A stretch of DNA of 63,994 nucleotides, filler included, from Atractiella rhizophila (taxonomy: Eukaryota), in the NCBI GenBank assembly GCA_021432655.1. It is 3 parts of 3 records of this genome, joined end to end, with 100 filler letters (N's around TTAATTAATTAA, not from the genome) between each part and the next. Parts side by side here need not be neighbours in the genome. Positions count along the whole stretch, not along the records: positions 1 to 31,011 come from MU271704.1; 2 more parts are not named here. One strand, given 5' to 3'. The stretch's first letter is position 1, and each line of letters begins with the position of its first letter. Shown piece after piece: positions 2,131 to 32,251 of this stretch. The translations under genes and the position numbers were made by a program. The notes beneath the pieces are model-generated. The model did no database searches. It was not told the DNA's origin and worked only from the letters and a program-made list of their open reading frames with translations.

Positions 2131-5100
2131 ATGGCGTTTTGGAAGCCAGGTACAGCAGCTCCAGGGTCATCGTTAGACCGTTCGACGCACGGCGAAGGGA
2201 ACGTTCTGACCTCTGCACCCTCCTCATTCACCTCCAGCCTCCCGATCCACAGCTCGCGTCTCTCCATCCTCCACGCGCTCGAATCACACCAAGTTCTCCT
2301 GCTCGTCAGTCCAACCGGGTCCGGTAAATCGACACAAGTGCCCCAATACCTTTTGCAGTCTGGTTGGGCCGCCAATGGACTGGTTGGTGTCTCTGAGCCC
2401 AGGAGGGTGGCGGCGGTCTCGCTTGCTCAAAGAGTGGCAGAGGAGAGAGGCACACGGGTAGGGGATGAAGTGGGGTATGAGATAAGATTTGAGAGCTTAA
2501 GGAGCGAGGAGACGAAGGTAGTCTTCTGTACGGATGGGTGGTTAGTCAAGGAGGTGGGCAGAAATCCGTTGCTTGAAGGTTGGAATGTTGTTATGGTGGA
2601 TGAAGCCCATGAAAGGGGGCGAGACACCGATCTACTCATTAGCATTTTGAAGAAGTAGGTGAGCTTGCTCCTTCATCAGGTGGAAGGATTTCTGCTTGCT
2701 ATTTACTTGGCTTAAGTGCCTGTTGAGATGAGTTGCGGCTACTTTTCAGTTTGAAAGTAAACCAGGGACCATTACCTGTATATCTGTCCAGAAACAACGC
2801 GTGTGATTTCTGCCTATAACTAAGCTCTCCCATCACCTAATAATGAAGAGGTGAAGGGGATGACGAGAATATCCAATTTGAAACTAATCAAAGGAGACAT
2901 CCGTGGCATAACCTCCGTTGAAGTCGACCCCTGGGATAAATTTGTATTTTGTGTTTGTTGATGTATCTGTAAGCTTACTCCAATCCTTTGCTACTGTTAC
3001 TTTCACTCTGCTAAGCTGTCTTCATGATCAAGGCGCTGTGTAGAGACTGTGGTTACCTGCGAACTTTGGCAGATTTCTGCTGTATCCTCACCTATCCGTC
3101 CTTGGTTAGAGAAGAGAATTCTTGGGATGCTGATATGTCGTCGCGTTGCCCTCATGAACATTTTCTGAGACGCCATCAACTCCTGGTCTACATTTCTCCA
3201 TCCCATCAATGCTTATCATCGTTTTATCGCGCAAAGGTGGTGACTCGCTAACAATTTCCTGTCTTAGAATTCTTCGCCAACGACCTTCGTTCCGCGTAAT
3301 AATCTCATCGGCAACCATAGATGCCTCTTCCTTCCTCTCATACTTCAACGCTCAGCAGACGACCGAGAATCCAATAGCCTCAGTGGTCAGCGTCCAGGGT
3401 CGCGTCTATCCCGTCGACATCTTGTACCTCGAGAAATCGGTCGCAGATTACGTGCAGGAGGCAATCAAGACTGTGATCGAAATTCATTTAAAGGTCTGCT
3501 GTTCTTCAACGTCACTACAGACTGCTCAAGCGTGGAGCAGCAACCGCCGGGTGACATCTTGGTATTTCTGACGGGACGGGAAGAGATTGATCGATGTTGC
3601 GAAGGTCTGGTGGAATATTTACCAAAGTACGCCTTACATGCTTCACTTCTTTTAGGAGGCTGATCATTTGTCAGTCTCCCACGGAATTATCCAACAATGA
3701 TGCCGTTGCCCATGCATGCCGGACTTTCCACAGAGGAGCAAATGTATGTCTTCGAGCCACCAGACCGCGCGAAAGGCACACGGAAGGTAGTGGTTTCGAC
3801 GAACGTTGCAAAAGCCAGTGTGACCATTGATGGTATCGTGTATGTTGTTGACTCTGGTCTGGTGAAGGTACAGCTGGAAATTTGTCTTGTACGGTGTTGT
3901 GTTGATCTGATGGCTATAGCAACGACTTTTCAATCCACACACTTCTACAGATATCCTAACCGTTGTACCTTGCTCGCTCTCGTCTCTCACACAACGAGCC
4001 GGACGAGCCGGTCGTACACGACCAGGCAAATGCTTTCGTCTTTTCCCAGAATCAGCTCTGTCCTCTTTATCGAAGAGCACAACTCCTGAGATCTGTCGAT
4101 CCGATCTCAGTTCCCCAGTGCTGGCTCTCAAGAATCTTGGGATTGACAATGTTCTGCGTTTCGATTGGCTCAGTCCACCACCAGCACAAATGTTGGCTCG
4201 AGCTCTGGAGTTTCTCTTTTCCCTCGGAGCTGTTGGTAGGGATGGAAGGTTATCGAAGCCGCTCGGGGAAAGGATGGCTGAAGTCCCCATGGAACCTATG
4301 ATGGCGAAAGTGGTAAGTCCCTCCTGTTATCCAGCAGTGGCAACTGAACCAGCTTTTAGCTACTCGATTCAAACGCTTTTGGATGTGGAGAAGAAATTTT
4401 GACGATTGCAGCGATGACACAAGTGCAGAATGTGTTTAACATTGGGGAAGGAGCAGAGGGAGCGCTAGGAGAGGTGGAACGAAGGAAGTTTACTGCTGAA
4501 GAAGGAGACCATCTAACTCTGCTGAATGGTGCGCCGTTTGCTCCTCCAAGGACTTCAAAACTAACCTTTAACAAAGTTTACAACGCTTTCATCAAAAGTA
4601 AGCTCCCAAGCCCTTTTACCACGTCAACGGCTCAACTTGACTTCAGATCGCAAATCTTCAAAATGGTGCCATACCCACCGGTTGAACTTCAAGTCCCTCT
4701 CTCGTGCTATCTCCATCCGTCTGCAATTGGCGAAATATATAAAGCGCTACGACATTCCATTAGTCAGTGCGAAAGGTGATCATGAGAAGATTCGCCGTTG
4801 TCTCGTCAGCGGTTACTTCAAAAATGCTGCTCGCATGCAGCCAGATGGTACCTATCGGACTGTGAAGGAAGGAGCTGTACGATTTCATACTTTGCTCACC
4901 AAATTGTCACTTTACTGGATTTATTATAGGTCCTGCATGTTCATCCATCCAGCGTGCTTTTCAATCGAAAGCCGAAGACGGATTGGGTCATCTACCACGA
5001 AGTGGTGGAAACTTCGAAGAGGTTCATGCGGGATTTGACCGTCGTTGATCATAATTGGTTGGCAGAACTCGCGTACGTCTGTTTCCGCGGGCAGTGGGCA

Positions 5101-5163
5101 GGATGTTGACCATGATAACTCTCTAGTCCGCATTATTACGAGTTCAAAGACGGTTCGAGATGA
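2131..5163 (+). CDS. DHX35: DEAH-box splicing helicase, DHX35-like
   Basis: N-terminus [17 protein letters not shown]; motifs [42 protein letters not shown]2/OB C-terminus. First intron is 2655-3267. Confidence 0.9.
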
Positions 5164-5700
5164 TCGTTGTCCACTTCTCACCACCTCTCTCGTTCTGTAT
5201 TTACACTCTTAAGAAGAGAAGTGTACATGTAATGTCCCTCTAATACTCCTCACATCTCACGCTGGAGGTGTCTCCTGTCACAATCCTATCGAGTCGTCGA
5301 GTCTTTGGATGTCTCTCCTCCCAAATCTTAGGGTGCAAACCTGGGTAAAGGCTCGGCTTTCGATCCTAATAATTAACTCTCAAAACCTGCTATCTTCCTT
5401 CGCACAAAGACAGTCGCGCTGAACAGAAACCAGTTATTCACAAGCATAAATACTGTTGTACAAATTACAAGCACAAACATAGACTGAAAGACTAAACAAA
5501 TGGCGTTTGACAGAAACGCAAATCAAGTCGATCAAAGCTGAAGCGCCCATGATCTAAATTTGCAACTTGAATGAATGGACTGAAACAAGGACGGAAGGGG
5601 GTGATTCTAATACTTTTGAGGCGTCGCAGACCCAAAGATTAGGTGAATGTCCTATGTACAGTTTGGGCTAAAGAGAAGAAAGGTTTAAGGATTGACGTGT

Positions 5701-7809
5701 TTATGAGACCCAGAAAGCAAGTGCGATGATGACGTAGAGAGAGATGAGCATGACACCTTCCATCTATCAGATGGTCCGCGAACATCAGTATAGTGCGGCG
5801 TCAGTGAAGAGAGAGGACGAACGTAGTTGCTCTTCCCATCCTGAACCAACAGGTTGACGAGAATGACGGAGATGAAGAGACAGATTGTTTCAAAGTTTTC
5901 GAAATAGAGCTAACCACGCCAAAGCAGCATGAATATCCATTTGGAAACCTCGCAAGAAGCGATAGAACGGATGGAAAACGCACAGTAAGATCTTTTCCGA
6001 TTACCCATCCGACAAGGACGAGGAATGGAATGACTCCCACGGCAATCTGGATCGAACTCCCGACAGAAACTCCAATCGTGATCTCCATCTTGTCCTTCAT
6101 TGCCATCCACACCGACGTAAGGTGCTCTGCGGCCTGTTGGCATCCATATTAGTTGGGTTTTGTTTGCCGGTGGAAATGAAATAGACGAACGTTACCAACG
6201 ATGGGGATGAGGATTATCCCGATGAAAGCTTTAGGGATCCCATGGCTGTTCGCGAACTCGTCGATGGAATCAACAACTGTACGAAGACATATTCTCAACA
6301 TAGCAAAGGAAGCGAAAGTGGGACATACGATAATCAGCACAAAAGCTAGTGAGGACGGTAACGACGACCAAAGACACGATACTCATGACCGGGTTCATCT
6401 TTGCCTCCTCTTCCTCCTCCTCAATCTCCTCTCCATCCTCATCCTTCTTCTTCTGTGCCTCAAACAAGTACGCATGGGTCTTCAACTGGAACCAAAGGTA
6501 CACAATGTATATGATCAGGAGGATGATGGCCGTCCCCCTCGAGATCGCAAGCAGTCCCTGACGCGTGACAGGGTCTTCGATCGCGATTTCGTCCTTTCCT
6601 GGATCACCCAACGTCCCGAGGGATTGAAGGACCAAAGCGGTAGTGTGGACCGGCTCGGTCTTATTCGTTCCCAAGCGCAGATACTCGTTCAGTCTCTTCT
6701 CGAGAGAACTCGAATGATAAGCGGCGGGGATGATGAGCGTGATGCAGGCGAGCGTCATAAGTGAACTCGACGCTTGGGCGGCTGTCACTTGAAAGTTGGA
6801 CTCGGGCAGGTAGAACCCGGCGGCGAAGAAGGAACATCCGAGGACGAGGAGGAGGTTGGAGAGGATGGAGCCGAGCATGGACGTTTGGACGATGCGGAGC
6901 TCTCCTTTGACGAGGGCGAGGATGCCCACGATCGCTTCGACAGCATTACCTGCGTTAGACATACTCTCAACTTCTGACTCATCATGTAGGTAGAGAGAGG
7001 AGGAGGCACCGAATGTAGCGTTTAATAACCCTCCTAAAGTCTGGCCGAGTTTCAATGCGACCTGTTCAGTGGCCTCTCCTAGTAGTCCGGCGAGAGGAAC
7101 GATGGCGCAGAAGGAGATTAGGAAGTCGGCGGTGCTTCCCCACCTTGCGAAATGAGAAACGAAAGAGAGGGGAACGAAGACGAGCAGGACGTTGAAATAG
7201 GAGCCAAATAGGAGCGCCTTGATGGACTCGAGGTTTGTTGGGGTGTGGTGGGATGAGGATGAGTGCACGAGGGGCAGCGTCGGGGATTTGGAGGCCTGTG
7301 CAGATGAGGAGACAAGTTAGTGAACAGCACGGAGGGGGTACCTCTCAAAGCAGAACATGATATCACAGGCTCAAGCGCAGCCATCCCCACAACTCACATC
7401 CACAGTTCCTCTTCTGCTCGCTCTCCCATGCTCATTCCCATCTGTCAATCTCCTTCGATAGCTTCTTTGTATGAGCCAATTCTTCCCACTAGGGAGGTGA
7501 AAGACTTTCATATCGTTGCCACTTCAATGGTGCAGCGATGGTGGTCGTTTTATGCAAGCTACGTAACGGGAGCACATTGGCACCCAGGACGTGAACTGCA
7601 AGAGGAAGCGATGGGCGGCGATGGTGCTCAGGGCCTTCGGTGTATTCGCCGAGAGAATGCATGTTGGAACTCACCTTGCCCTTCCTGCTCCTAATCCCAT
7701 TACTGCCTCCACTCCCATTGGGCAACAAAGGCTGTCTCTCGTCGTCCGCTGTCCACGCGCACCGTCACCTCCTCCTCTAACGCAAGCAAAAAGAAGACTA
7801 CGTACACAT
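5701..7809 (-). CDS. VCX1: Vacuolar Ca2+/H+ exchanger (CAX family)
   Basis: GGLLNATFG|NAVE, GSILSNLLLVLG, acidic loop, LIPIVGN|AAEH, VGSSIQIA; ends AFWVS*. Start read as ATG-T|intron|MSDDERQPLL. Confidence 0.92.
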
Positions 7810-21245: not shown

Positions 21246-22610
21246 CGACTTAATTCTTCGAGCGTTTCAACCTCTCCTCTCCGCTTCGATTCATACCATG
21301 GATCTTATATTGTTGTAACGCCCTCATTATGCACTGGCATCTTGGATCGCGTGTAGCTAGAGAGTGCTCAGTGTCATTATCCACGTATTCCTCAGGGCAG
21401 AAACAATTTTATCTTTCCTTTCATCAGGGGCGCTCGCAGGTTGTGAGTGGATAAGAAATATGATGTTAGCTGAAAGCTCATAGAAGTTATCAGTCAGCTC
21501 TCCCCGGATGGACGCGATGAGAAGGTTCCGTAAGCTCCTCTTAGTTTGGCGACTTGGGATGAGGAATTCTATTGCCATCTGAAGAGCATCATGACGCTCC
21601 TCAGCCTGCAAAAAGAGCCAGTCATCTCCTCACGCGCTCCTATCAGACCTTGCGCAGCTGCAGCGTATATGTACTACGCAACGCAATATTCACTCAACAA
21701 AAACTGGTCGTGGTCGTACGCTGTCACCATCCATCCATCTTTCTCTGAGACTTACTTCCGCCAAGTTCGTTCATGACTTCTGGCCCCAAGAAAAAAAGAA
21801 CTTGAATGCTCCCTCCTACGACGATTTCAATAAGGAGGTCACAAATATTCTCTCCGAAACCAAGAACCAGGGTCTGACGACGTTGACGGAACGTGCTCTC
21901 GCAGATGATATGTCGAGCCGACTCCAGCCCAATGGAGCAAATGTCTCCGCCGCGACCGTAACCCAGCACACCTAATAACTAGAAGTTCATTCGTTCGTTT
22001 CGCGAAGTGGATCATGCTTCAGTACTTTGGTTTTCTCGAGTCTCTTGGTGCAATTTCTGTAACATTGAATGAATATCTGTTGAGTTCTACTCCTTCCATT
22101 CAAAGGAAGCACTGGTCCTGTTGCCTCTTTATCAATGGCTCAAACGCTGAGGCATTCCTTTGAGGTGTTGATGCCCGAGTTTCCGCATAGAAGCAAAAGA
22201 AACCGAACTCGGAATGACGACAGCTTCTCTTCCTCCAGCCGTTTCTGGTGCCTAAGCGACCCGTAATTTGGCGTCCCGGCAGTTCGCATACCTTCTTAGC
22301 AGCCCCGTCAATCGCGTGCTTGCGCTGGAAAGGCCAGCCTTGCTTCGATACAGTTCATGCTTAGCAGTTCTACCGATCCAATCCAGGTTCTTGATGCCCT
22401 CAGTGCTCAGCACGTAATCGTGAGATGCGTGTGGGAAGAAGGTATGTTATTCGCTGGTTCTGTGTTAATTATTGACTATACAAGTCGTTACTCAGTTCAC
22501 GGGCGAAATCTGACCCAATAGCTGTGGTCTATAAAATCCACACGTCTTGTTGAAGAATCTCTATTCCTTTGGTTTGTCAGCTTCCTTCGTCTCTGTATTT
22601 ATCGCCAATA

Positions 22611-24089
22611 ATGCTTGTCTCTCTTTCCGCGATAATTCTCTCATCCGCTGCTCTCCTTGCGGAAGCAGCACTCCCAAAAAACGAGCGTCAACTCGCCGGT
22701 GCAAACATTGGGTCCTTCTTGAACGAGAAAGACGCATGGGGGTTCGATGATTTGGGAAAGGAGGTTGACACAGGTGCTCATGTGAACAACCGTATGTCTT
22801 ATCTTCATTTAACGAAAAGCGAGTTGACGAGAACTCTTGACAGTTGGTGAGGAAAGGATAAGGAGAAATCAGTATTCTCCTCGCAATGGCCACGCGAGAC
22901 AAGGTCAATATCATCAGGAATGGAAGCGTGGTAAACCATCCATGACCACGACCTCTCCGCCCCCTGCCGCAACGTGCCCTGGTACGTGGACTGGTACAAC
23001 CTGCAACTCTGGTGGTGTCAGTATACCGTTCTCCTCGCCTTATCGATCCACTTCTTACCTATGTGTAACTGTAGGGATCAGACGGCTGCACTCCGTATAC
23101 CATTGGGAACACTTGCTCCAATGGCATCAATGGATTAACTCTTCCCCCTGGCAAGACGTTCTCGGATGGTGGGCATGTGAATTATCAGGTGTGTGCTTCC
23201 TGCTCTCTTTCAGGAACACGCTAATGCCAGTGGACAGGCAATTCCTTGCAGTCAATACAAATGTGGACAAACCTACAAGTCTAATTCAGGTTGGACTCCA
23301 GCGTGAGCTTCATTCCATCCTTAGCCAGGATAGTTACTGATGGGTTCATTGGGCAATGTGAGCCAGTTCATTTGGCACCCACTTCGAATCTTTGAACAAT
23401 CAGCCGAGTGGCAAATACATTGGAAAGTCATGCTACGATTTCTCAGGTGCATACAACTACTTCGGAGGCAGCTATTGTGTTACTTGGGTCCAGGTTGGTC
23501 TTCCTTCTGCCCCAGGATTGATGAATGAATGTTTGTTTTTTAGAGCTCCGACTACAATCAGCATTGGGGAGAAGGCGGCCAACCGCCAGTGTGCCAGAAT
23601 TGTCAGTGCGAATGTGGTATGTAGCTTCCTTCTTACTCAATTCCAGGTGCTGAAATTGGTTTCAGAGGGACAAGTCACCTACAATAAGGAAGCAGTAGTG
23701 AAAGTGGACAACGCACAATTTACTACTTCGGCGCGAACTACTGCCACCGCGACTGCCACCAAAACCACCGCAGCTTCTGCTCCGACGCCGACGGTTGGTG
23801 CCTACCTTCAATGCGGTGGACTGCTTTACAGCGGTCCAACAACGTGTCATAACGGCTACCATTGCGAAGGAACGAGCCTTCTCAAAACCTGTGTCCCCAA
23901 CGTCGGGAAGCTGCAATGTAGTGCGAATTATGGACAGTGCGGAGGCAAAGGTTGGTTAGGAACAACCTGCTGCCAAGATGGATGGACGTGTGTCGCCTCT
24001 GGTGAGCTTCCTCTCTCCCATCGGCAGAAGAAGAAACTGATGGGTTCATGGGGATAGGCGACTATTTCTCACAGTGTTTGGATGTGTAA
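22611..24089 (+). CDS. Secreted protein: signal peptide, propeptide with RR/KR sites, unassigned Cys/His domain, Thr-rich linker, two CBM1 modules
   Basis: Signal MLVSLSAIILSSAALLAEA. CBM1 #1 YLQCGGLLYSGPTTCHNGYHC; CBM1 #2 YGQCGGKGWLGTTCCQDGWTCVASG|DYFSQCL. Canonical introns give one open frame. Confidence 0.88.
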
Positions 24090-24750
24090 TCACCCGACAA
24101 AGCTCCCATGGGAGACGGGTGCTCCATCATTGTTATTCTTCAAGTTCTTTTTGTCTTGGGCTCGGGTGCACAGTTGTTCTTTTCCTGTCTGTCTTTCACA
24201 TCATTCTCATTCACATCATGGACTTTCTGGCGTCGTGGATTGCCATTCTCGAATCGTCAGTAGATTCGGCCTACTCATTGTCATCATTCTCACCCTCTTT
24301 GAATTGAATCATCCTTTCTTTACCATTCGTGTCCTCAACACCGTCCAGTCCACCGCTTTTTGCAGGTTACAAGGCTTAAAAGAAGCATCTCAAATGAAAT
24401 GATCCAGGAACGTGTTCGATCGCGTTCAGTCCCGTGATCTCAAAACTTTGGGGCACCAGTTCCAACTCAACCTCGAAACGACCATTCTCAGCGGCAACTG
24501 CGTCTTCTCAGCTCCTCTGTGCCCTCCACGCCAACACAGTACTCAAAAGGAGGACAAAGTACATACTCTTTCGGTACGAACGGGAGTTAGTGGCTTAGAC
24601 TCTCTCGACATCCATTTTGTTGCATCAGATATTATTAAATACCAAGCTTCTCGTCCTCTAGGGTTCTCGGTTGTGTATTGAAGGTTCATAAGGAAGGAGT
24701 TGCATAAAGTGTGTTAGAAGCGTATCTAGACAGAAGGGAATTCAAAGACG

Positions 24751-31011: not shown

Positions 31012-31111
31012 NNNNNNNNNNNNNNNNNNNNNNNNNNNNNNNNNNNNNNNNNNNNTTAATTAATTAANNNNNNNNNNNNNNNNNNNNNNNNNNNNNNNNN
31101 NNNNNNNNNNN
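31012..31111. other. Artificial assembly linker (N-run + TTAATTAATTAA + N-run, 100 bp)
   Basis: Six-frame-stop palindrome embedded in Ns; an identical structure occurs at 62115-62214. Confidence 0.97.
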
Positions 31112-32251
31112 GCAGAGAGACTGACCTGCTTGCCCTTTGTGGAGTTTCGATGAGAGTGGAGGGACAAGGCGAGTAGCTTGTGCGAGTAGCTAGAGTTGTA
31201 TTTAGTCAGCCTGAGCACGCTACTGAGATCTAAAGTATGCATCACGGAACATGCAGACAGGCGAAAAATGAGGGAGTGAGAAACCACGAGAAAGGTAGGA
31301 AACAGGTGCAGATATATATCGGGACGAAGGGGGACGGACTTGTTTGTTTGATGACATTTTGCAACGCTGTAACTTTAAGAACACTTGGATTATTTGCTAA
31401 TGAATCGCTGAGCAGGGCTATGCTGGACGTATCTGGATGGATGAGAGGGACATCTTCATCTTACGTCAAGCAGGAAAGACTTCTTGTCAACTTTCCTCAT
31501 CAACGGCATCAACTCAATAAATCTTCCCTTGCGTACAAATTTACAGTAGATCAGGTAATTGAAAGGACTGGGAAGTGTCGCAGGAAGTGTCAGTCCTGAG
31601 ATCTCTAGGCCGTCACAGGAGTGAGTCGGTTTAACTTCCTCGCCATTTTGCCTCCAGGCGATTTCTTCATATTCCAATACCTGTGATTTTGGATGTCCAC
31701 TCCGCTCCTTTAATTCTATAAGTACTGCTCGCTTTACTCTTTTTAGAGACGAACATAGGCAGCTTTTGTGTCCTGTTTTGTGCCTGCGATTCTGTGCCTC
31801 GTCAAAAGTCACGTGATCTATCGCCTGTATAGACTTTGTTTGAGGAGAGCTTGACTCCGTCTTATTAATATTTTTGTCACCTGGAGTCTGTAGGGATGTT
31901 GTGATGGGTGGATCGCTTCGTTTTATGTCACTTCTTTGATTGTACGAGCGCATCTACCTCTTCATAACTTGTCCGACTTGAACTTGAGATGGACACCGTG
32001 TAAAGCTTTGAATAACCAACCCAAATTTGCCACAAAGGATTGAGGTTGAATTTTGAATTCGGATCTCAAAAGAACTATGACAATGTACTGTTGCATTGCG
32101 TATAGGTGCTCCATTCAAAGCATGGCAAGGATACTGCGTCGAAAATGAAACTCTGGGTTCTGCTTGTGACTGCATCATGCACAAATTGTGGTTGATAGGA
32201 TTAAAATTGCTAATAAAACTCATTAGCAGGAACAACAGTAGTCGATATCCT

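Follow-up and report, generated by a model that had tools for sequence, protein, structure and literature searches.

The gene described here lies on the plus strand of a stretch of DNA from the root-associated fungus Atractiella rhizophila (GenBank assembly GCA_021432655.1), at positions 22611 to 24089 of the window, by which we mean the whole 63,994 nucleotides that were analysed. Its product appears to join a domain of actinobacterial type to two CBM1 modules. We propose that it would be a secreted modular protein consisting of a signal-like sequence, a spacer or pro-region with a Lys-Arg (KR) dipeptide, a disulfide-reinforced sandwich domain, a linker and the two CBM1. The sandwich (head) domain would belong to an unnamed family, found mainly in sortase-anchored wall proteins of Actinomycetota (Oerskovia, Agrococcus and others of the same order), where it forms the N-terminus of the mature protein and so its outermost part. 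The fungal copies would come from one actinobacterial gene of the Agrococcus/Oerskovia type, which after its transfer would have taken on the base composition of the host, introns and extra cysteines, and would have been joined to CBM1 in two orders. We hold the identity of the gene, as encoding a CBM1-linked protein with an actinobacterial-type head, and its bacterial origin with high confidence; the explanation taken as a whole is, in our judgment, probable.

A preliminary description of this DNA, made from the sequence, had called the domain unassigned, and this is what our searches returned for the database copy of the protein (P0001, whose residue numbers are used throughout), for its bacterial relatives and for 130 family members. 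Pfam found nothing on the domain, whether searched with the seven larger exon translations, the whole protein, four proteins or the 130 members singly. A zinc-finger match on exon 4 was sub-threshold (14.7 bits, with a cutoff of 27) and was taken as chance. Outside the domain, 16 of the 130 members have Gram_pos_anchor and 8 have CBM_1; low-complexity linker families were matched as well. In 24 long members Pfam recognised, besides CBM_1, Excalibur (in one), a single LPXTG anchor, a linker resembling Extensin and a match below threshold, with no further partner domain and nothing on the domain itself. NCBIfam returned anchor models only, and nothing on the domain, among the 4 and 24 proteins scanned; for the Oerskovia-type proteins these were weak matches to the LAETG, LAVTG and LPXTG anchor models. 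A sequence search of the PDB matched P0001 to CBM1 chains only (E 2.4e-6), and the Oerskovia-type protein P0003 to one row at chance level (E 0.2). PHROGs gave nothing for a phage protein and two others. Known catalytic families, i.e., glycoside hydrolases, carbohydrate esterases, polysaccharide lyases and auxiliary activities, as well as expansin/DPBB, had no Pfam or PDB-sequence match on the domain. We found no paper on the gene, its accessions, the family or the motifs of the domain in a literature search at the level of listings and abstracts. The domain family is undescribed, and the protein would be a secreted one, tethered by CBM1, whose core was acquired horizontally from bacteria.

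To define the family, a profile of six domain stretches was compared with 1.84 billion representative sequences. The number of proteins matched was 289 with a cutoff of E ≤ 1e-3 and fell to 228 with E ≤ 1e-10 and to 24 with E ≤ 1e-30. P0001 scored 177.9 bits over positions 1-103, a score that is partly by construction, since P0001 is in the profile; all near-invariant residues of the family are present in the window protein, with W228 at a position for Phe or Tyr. We classified the 150 listed rows of the 289 by pattern and by eye: 132 are bacterial-like, 13 have a CBM1 signature and 5 more look eukaryotic, as judged on Cys-richness, a fungal-type insertion or intron read-through. In 126 of the 132 listed bacterial-like proteins, the first residue of the domain is among the first 60 of the protein, and an LPXTG-like motif stands in the last 50 residues of 98 (68 LAxTG, 21 LPxTG).

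Among the closest known proteins are uncharacterised, hypothetical ones of the Oerskovia type. A query with exon 5 returned eight proteins, namely two from Atractiella and six of the Oerskovia type (249-260 amino acids, 73-80% identity over the exon), and four Oerskovia-type domains are 63-65% identical to P0001 over the aligned domain. These bacterial proteins have a signal peptide, a domain of about 103 residues directly after Ala-x-Ala, a Pro/Thr/Glu stalk, L-A-A-T-G, a hydrophobic stretch and a basic tail. The resemblance to actinobacterial surface proteins that the preliminary description had proposed is thus a real one. Oerskovia (P0003-P0008, P0012, P0015) and Agrococcus (WP_092503661.1, i.e., P0034) share with the fungal protein a domain of about 100-120 residues and its near-invariant positions; P0034, which BLASTP matched at E 1e-35, is 47% identical to the window domain over 131 residues, insertion included. 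However, in the bacterial proteins the domain comes right after the signal peptide and is followed by the stalk and a sortase anchor, with no CBM1 and no introns, whereas the fungal protein is soluble, with an N-terminal spacer, C-terminal CBM1 and 12 Cys in the domain, as compared with 2 in bacteria. The named bacterial members are Oerskovia flava, O. paurometabola, Oerskovia sp. and Agrococcus jejuensis. Some bacterial members have Lys-rich signal peptides. A bacterial subfamily (P0101, P0103, P0111, P0116, P0125 and others) has an extra Cys-rich loop, of the type K-C-I-x-R-T-D-A-E-C-A-G-x-R-H, directly after H-F-E, which brings one more His and two Cys beside the residues of the conserved pocket discussed below.

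The family is rare and patchy in genome samples. At class level the domain was found in none of 400 genomes other than the centre genome, and at order level in 14 of 400 other genomes. A scan of species-representative contigs with two strict exact peptide patterns gave 4 Oerskovia-type loci among 38 pattern matches, a small number that reflects the strictness of the patterns.

Among fungi, the domain occurs in Rhodotorula (toruloides, babjevae, glutinis, graminis, kratochvilovae, taiwanensis and sphaerocarpa), in Rhodosporidiobolus (nylandii, ruineniae, microsporus, poonsookiae, azoricus and lusitaniae), in one unplaced Microbotryomycetes sp. and in Atractiella. At least 14 species of Sporidiobolales have it, seven from each of the two yeast genera. 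All named fungal copies are thus from Pucciniomycotina, and 16 of 18 fungal matches carry PF00734. The copies in Sporidiobolales resemble that of Atractiella in the domain (61% identity over 126 residues for P0014 of Rhodotorula toruloides), in having CBM1 and in their Ser/Thr linkers. They differ in order, as the yeasts have two to seven CBM1 first and the domain at the extreme C-terminus, whereas in Atractiella the domain is first and CBM1 follow; and most yeast copies have 3 Cys in the domain, in contrast to 12. The names that databases give to yeast orthologues ("cellobiohydrolase II", "proteophosphoglycan ppg4") rest on the CBM1 or on low-complexity linkers; Pfam found no GH6 or other catalytic domain in the yeast homologues among the long members. 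The second Atractiella protein, P0002 (302 amino acids, three CBM1, on a contig of 4,490 bp), is a paralogue with 78% identity to P0001 over the aligned domain. Its annotated start lies inside the domain, and it is probably a truncated gene model.

We built two trees of the domain. The quick tree used 154 domain rows and 101 columns and was drawn with a midpoint root. In it, all 22 rows of CBM1 type, the Agrococcus protein P0034 and the eukaryote-like P0119 form one clade (96 in the Shimodaira-Hasegawa-like approximate likelihood ratio test, SH-aLRT), which lies within a clade of 39 rows together with Oerskovia (95). The careful tree used 60 chosen rows and 103 columns, after 94 rows had been dropped (near-duplicates and most of the distant bacterial half). 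Here the 14 eukaryotic rows form one clade (ultrafast bootstrap 97, SH-aLRT 36), and 98% of 200 bootstrap trees require a single change. This clade is sister to Agrococcus jejuensis (97/86), inside an actinobacterial clade of 27 rows (99/94), and with Agrococcus it is nested among Oerskovia-type sequences, in accord with the quick tree. Agrococcus also shares a 12-residue insertion of fungal type, which a word-based search found in bacteria in two Agrococcus jejuensis proteins only. The coding sequence of the gene has a G+C fraction of 0.51 (0.50 at third positions), close to that of the window (0.49); 11 of 12 bacterial loci are at 0.70-0.76 and one is at 0.60. The open reading frames (ORFs) that flank the gene are eukaryotic and intron-bearing. 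Taken together, the trees, the shared insertion, the G+C content and the eukaryotic flanks support an old transfer from an Agrococcus/Oerskovia-type actinobacterium into Pucciniomycotina; full amelioration and the gain of introns imply that it happened long ago.

A transfer followed by the gain of introns, cysteines and CBM1 had been suggested at the outset, as had the phylogeny that we have now built. The trees, the host-like G+C content, the seven introns and the 12 Cys as compared with 2 fit that suggestion, and bacterial homologues exist, among which the fungal clade is nested. It needs correction on one point: the gene is not private to Atractiella, since species of Sporidiobolales have it, and their copies make the transfer older or more complex than a single event into the Atractiella genome.

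It is important to consider several points that weigh against our reading. Many bacterial members come from metagenome assemblies and carry no taxon. The trees rest on about 100 columns and are rooted at the midpoint only. Atractiella belongs to Atractiellomycetes, another class than that of Sporidiobolales; in the tree, unlike in the species tree, it is nested among the rows of Sporidiobolales (94/94), and its branch is long (0.66). Given this placement, a single transfer with a simple vertical history is not established. Furthermore, no functional theme is conserved across the bacterial neighbourhoods examined, and H183, one of the residues of the proposed pocket, is Asn, Gln or Asp in some members, including fungal ones (P0016, P0017, P0055 and P0119). 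The placement of Atractiella, together with its reversed domain order, hints at a transfer between fungi or at an independent fusion to CBM1. One acquisition with later reshuffling and a second, fungus-to-fungus step are both compatible with the trees and the domain order.

The direction of the transfer might in principle be reversed, from fungi to bacteria, or the gene might be an ancient one that both inherited vertically. The trees are unrooted, with the midpoint serving for drawing only, and because Agrococcus jejuensis is the sole bacterium found with the fungal-type insertion, its two proteins could be read as a back-transfer. However, bacteria hold nearly all of the diversity of the family (132 of the 150 listed rows), the eukaryotic rows are a shallow single clade nested three levels deep, the named fungal hosts are limited to Pucciniomycotina, and the Agrococcus protein is bacterial in its architecture, with a signal peptide, an N-terminal domain and an LPRTG anchor. 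We consider both variants very improbable. An artefact, whether from contaminating bacterial DNA or from a mis-assembly that fused a bacterial gene to a fungal CBM1 gene, might account for 80% identity to bacterial proteins over one exon. It is already refuted by RNA contigs in which all introns are removed and domain exons are linked to CBM1 exons. Also against it are the seven spliceosomal introns, of which five fall inside the part that codes for the domain, at its close or after it, the host-like G+C content and the CBM1-linked copies in thirteen further fungal genomes.

The gene is genuine: it is nuclear, belongs to Atractiella rhizophila or to a strain close to it, and is both transcribed and spliced. 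The spliced model runs from the ATG at 22611 to the TAA, with a coding sequence of 1101 nucleotides for 366 amino acids, in 8 exons separated by 7 GT..AG introns of 49-64 nucleotides each (Table 1). The five exon peptides that the preliminary description had given agree letter for letter with the spliced translation, in which a Thr/Ala-rich linker and the two CBM1 come next, as had also been read. A search of public runs found 24 with part of the stretch, 3 of which are recorded as RNA; the RNA contigs that we used come from three metatranscriptomes (two of soil, one of root) and from a fourth run whose RNA origin is a guess. With these four runs pooled, all seven splice joints were found at the modelled positions, each run having five to seven of the seven. 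The joints 22791|22844 and 24001|24058 are each present in all four runs, and that of exon 5 in three. One RNA contig of 1129 nucleotides (X1 record 2) covers 22844-24200, from exon 2 to past the stop, and in it the exons of the domain are spliced to those of the CBM1. As this evidence consists of contigs and not reads, it speaks to presence and splicing rather than to the level of expression.

Table 1. Parts of the gene in the window and what each encodes
Feature	Positions	Strand	Content
5' untranslated leader	22576..22610	+	RNA contig starts at 22576-22581
Exon 1	22611..22791	+	Signal-peptide-like N-terminus (aa 1-19, 22611-22667); start of spacer
Exon 2	22844..23016	+	Spacer; KR dipeptide (aa 88-89, 22924-22929); Thr/Pro stretch; fungus-specific Cys-rich lead-in (aa 104-118) from 22972
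Exon 3	23075..23188	+	Start of family core (GSD..TPYT, GGHVNY); H152 codon 23174-23176
Exon 4	23238..23302	+	12-residue insertion of fungal copies and Agrococcus jejuensis, not in Oerskovia
Exon 5	23367..23493	+	Block of highest conservation (HFE..NNQPSG..IG, C-V-T-W-V-Q); H183 codon 23380-23382
Exon 6	23544..23616	+	End of domain (Y-N-Q-H-W-G-E-G-G-Q..P-V-C); extra Cys; H227 codon 23562-23564; core ends at 23594
Exon 7	23666..24001	+	Thr/Ala-rich linker; divergent CBM1 at ~23800-23895; most of second CBM1 from ~23923
Exon 8	24058..24089	+	End of second CBM1; stop codon 24087-24089

P0001, annotated as "CBM1 protein" of Atractiella rhizophila (366 amino acids), has its gene on a 96-kb Atractiella contig and equals the product of the window gene except for three residues of exon 1 (L48S, A55I and V57S, at 22752-22781). 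In runs X10 and X1, RNA contigs with T>C and G>A at 22753/22754 give the P0001 residue at position 48. These differences and RNA variants indicate that the window represents another strain or allele of the same species. No second copy of the gene was found within the window. The window contains 176 N, and a run of N at about 31060-31120, some 7 kb downstream of the gene, was read as an assembly gap.

The encoded protein has, in order, a signal-like N-terminus, a spacer of about 85 residues with the KR dipeptide, a Cys-rich domain of 120-140 residues, the Thr/Ala linker and the two CBM1. The signal peptide, secretion and processing at KR by a Kex2-like protease are predictions made by eye from the sequence. 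The CBM1 assignment is firm: Pfam PF00734 matches two stretches (residues ~290-321 and 331-364) at 50.3 bits, with a cutoff of 20.6, and exon 7 by itself gives CBM_1 at E 9.4e-15. The second CBM1 keeps the Y-x-Q-C-L type of end (...D-Y-F-S-Q-C-L). The first is divergent and ends in ...L-L-K-T-C-V, lacking the terminal aromatic motif of the Y-x-Q-C-L type; judging from these residues, it may bind poorly or have a different ligand. The window protein ends in its second CBM1 (...S-Q-C-L-D-V) and not in a sortase motif. As the preliminary description had pointed out, there is no N-terminal His of the kind found in mature lytic polysaccharide monooxygenases (AA9-AA17 type): the candidate mature ends are A20, after the likely signal cleavage, and G90, after KR, and Pfam has no match on the domain. 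Moreover, the domain is internal in the fungal protein, while the mature N-terminus of the bacterial ones is G-G-S-D.

Conserved residues of the family were counted over 147 distinct full-length domains. Y126, L141, H227 and G229 are invariant. S120 (Thr in the remaining one), N154, G197, W218 and Q220 are each present in 146/147, and P125 in 145/147. Somewhat lower counts apply to Q233 (144/147), H152 and E230 (143/147 each), position 185 (Glu or Asp in 142/147), D121 (140/147) and C215 (137/147). The three His residues that had been proposed as a possible metal site are therefore conserved, with the qualification that H183 is found in 122/147 as aligned and in more by eye, because many of the misses are the subfamily with the extra Cys-rich loop, in which H-[FLM]-E is present but misaligned. 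True substitutions of H183 by Asn, Gln or Asp occur in P0016, P0163, P0017, P0020, P0055 and P0119.

The cysteines behave differently. C215 and C237 occur together in 118/154 rows, C215 is absent or shifted in 10/154, and P0129 and P0149 have no Cys in the domain at all. This pattern of co-occurrence, shifts and losses fits a disulfide rather than a reactive Cys. A thioester (Cys-Gln) adhesin domain was also considered and was rejected, as the Cys is not fixed.

AlphaFold2 models of the domain are confident. The 141-residue fungal stretch, with an alignment of 130 rows, gave a mean predicted local distance difference test (pLDDT) of 90.0 and a predicted TM-score (pTM) of 0.84, the first 5 residues being below 50 in pLDDT; the 103-residue Oerskovia domain, with 123 rows, gave 96.2 and 0.87. 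Both models are a beta-sandwich with two short helices, and the order of strands and helices is the same. The strand with H152 and N154 and that with H183 and E185 are consecutive in both. If the two form a hairpin, as strand order and lengths suggest, the side chains of these four residues would face the same way.

Foldseek, which had been suggested at the outset along with AlphaFold, matched neither the fungal nor the bacterial model to the PDB at E ≤ 1e-3, the lowest E values being 0.17 and 0.12. When the models were aligned to 48,161 chains with VIA-align, the highest Z scores were 4.3 (fungal) and 5.2 (bacterial), in flat lists of FN3, Ig and cytokine-receptor domains and of CBM56 at Z 4.0-5.0; by the guidance of the tool, flat scores at this level indicate a common arrangement only. 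Matches in the ESM Atlas were limited to actinobacterial clusters without a name and to Ig domains of the Big_13 type, with TM of about 0.5-0.64. The fold is therefore predicted to be an FN3/Ig-like sandwich without a close solved relative. FN3/Ig modules (Z 5.2) and CBM56 modules (Z 4.8-5.0; 6a6c, 5h9y) share this fold class and align with a root-mean-square deviation of 3.0-3.3 Å over 73-78 residues. However, they have no sequence similarity to the domain, and such flat scores are expected for any sandwich.

We propose that docking on cellulose, or on a wall polymer related to it, would be the task of the CBM1, and that the head would show a polar pocket made of H152, N154, H183, E/D185, H227, E230, Q233, S120, D121 and W218. 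The ligand bound in this pocket would be a glycan of the wall or a metal ion. That CBM1 is repeatedly found coupled to the domain hints strongly at a role on surfaces that contain cellulose. Our tentative preference, from sequence and model, is that the head is a candidate binding module rather than an enzyme, although this is far less secure than the identity and origin of the gene. The preference is based on the small, plain sandwich, the position of the domain at the tip of bacterial stalks, the presence of up to seven CBM1 in the yeast homologue P0166 and the tolerance of substitutions at H183.

The best-placed alternative sees in the head a small enzyme that depends on a metal, or a redox module, for example with Cu or Fe held at H152, H183 and H227 together with E185 or E230. 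CBM1 would then deliver it to cellulose, and it would be a new carbohydrate-active family akin to the auxiliary activities. Of the three His, two hardly vary and one is conserved in most members, along with acidic residues, across bacteria and fungi, and CBM1 is usually attached to enzymes. In Oerskovia-type loci, the gene lies about 1.3 kb from those for a Cu P-type ATPase (TIGR01511, 569 bits with a cutoff of 397) and the metallochaperone CopM (117 bits with a cutoff of 90). A superoxide reductase is among the flat fold matches (Z 4.6), where it is indistinguishable from the other rows. However, the domain has only about 100 residues and is a plain FN3/Ig sandwich, H183 is replaced by Asn, Gln or Asp in several members, the copper neighbourhood recurs in 1 of 12 further loci only, there is no N-terminal His brace, and as many CBM1 as P0166 has are more typical of binding proteins. 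We thus consider an enzyme of this kind unlikely.

Less probable still is that S120, H227, E230 and Q233 form a covalent cross-link made by the protein itself, in the style of Thr-Gln ester bonds, and so provide mechanical stability rather than ligand binding. Such a role would suit the setting of the domain, which is Ig-like and stands at the tip of proteins with a sortase anchor, and the family does have a hydroxyl residue near its start (Ser in 146 and Thr in 1 of the 147 domains) and His-x2-Glu-x2-Gln near its end (147, 143 and 144). The Cpe0147-type adhesin domains of Clostridium perfringens are likewise Ig-like, belong to a Gram-positive wall-anchored protein and combine a hydroxyl residue at the start with His, acid and Gln at the end; the ester bond of Cpe0147 uses T450, H572, D577 and Q580 (10.1101/2025.03.26.645365). 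However, those domains form a long repeat array with Thr and His-x4-Asp-x2-Gln, whereas ours is a single copy with Ser and His-x2-Glu-x2-Gln, so that the His-to-Gln spacing is 6 rather than 8. Ser at the nucleophile position is a further difficulty since, when the Thr of Cpe0147 is changed to Ser, the ester is reported to hydrolyse, so that the cross-link is lost (10.1101/2025.03.26.645365). In addition, no model matched the domain in the members scanned (4 and 24 with NCBIfam, 130 with Pfam).

The coupling to CBM1 also offers an initial clue to the function of several hundred unannotated wall proteins of Gram-positive bacteria and of phage genes. A bolder version, which we think unlikely, is that a His/His/His-carboxylate metal centre on a minimal FN3-like sandwich defines a new class of extracellular binding or catalytic module. 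If this were true, the domain would found a new CAZy-type family (a CBM or an auxiliary activity) acting at plant or microbial wall surfaces; the walls of Actinobacteria, whose phages also carry the domain, would display the module, and Pucciniomycotina that live with plants would have taken it over and linked it to CBM1. To our knowledge, there are few cases in which a bacterial surface-protein domain is found in fungi, has introns and is fused to a fungal-only module in two orders. The family has a small domain, a confident predicted fold and a sharply conserved polar cluster, and its function could be tractable by a single expression and structure study. Rhodotorula toruloides is genetically tractable, and its orthologue offers a direct route to a phenotype.

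The domain also occurs in phages, namely in 5 of 50,697 phage records, all from phages of Microbacterium foliorum with genomes of 133-195 kb, at 51-55% identity. The phage proteins, that at 3665-6250 of locus L033 among them, are long, with the domain near the N-terminus behind a signal-like leader. That of Microbacterium phage Magritte (P0059, 877 amino acids) has an LPXTG-like end, and the gene in phage Zooman is annotated as "membrane protein". A phage-borne, sortase-anchored host-surface protein is unusual, and it suggests one possible route for the domain between hosts.

We examined the gene neighbourhoods in bacteria with 12 further loci from the order-level sample, in which ORFs were called by G+C content at third codon positions and 125 were scanned. 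At the first Oerskovia-type locus (L001, 578-6662), the gene comes after genes for a BlaI/CopY-type repressor, DsbA-like and CcdA-like proteins, the Cu P-type ATPase, CopM and an alpha/beta hydrolase. Among the 12 further loci, the ATPase context is repeated in L021 (9780-12662). A copper function deduced from the neighbourhood was accordingly rejected, as this context occurs in just 1 of the 12. Genes for an MrfA-type helicase (DEAD/MZB) and an M18 aminopeptidase adjoin the gene in 6 of the 12 (L023, L025, L026, L028, L030 and L032), and 5 of these 6 also have a gene for a secreted SH3b plus Rpf-like transglycosylase; in L030, this stretch is masked by an overlapping long ORF. The synteny with helicase, M18 and transglycosylase genes may be a functional link or plain shared ancestry of related genomes. 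L024 had no informative neighbour match. The remaining loci are varied: L022 has GH31 and MFS genes, and L029 has GH15, GH114 and a LuxR-type regulator. L031 lies in a prophage-like stretch with ANT/Bro, M78 and PDDEXK genes, and L027 has an integrase nearby.

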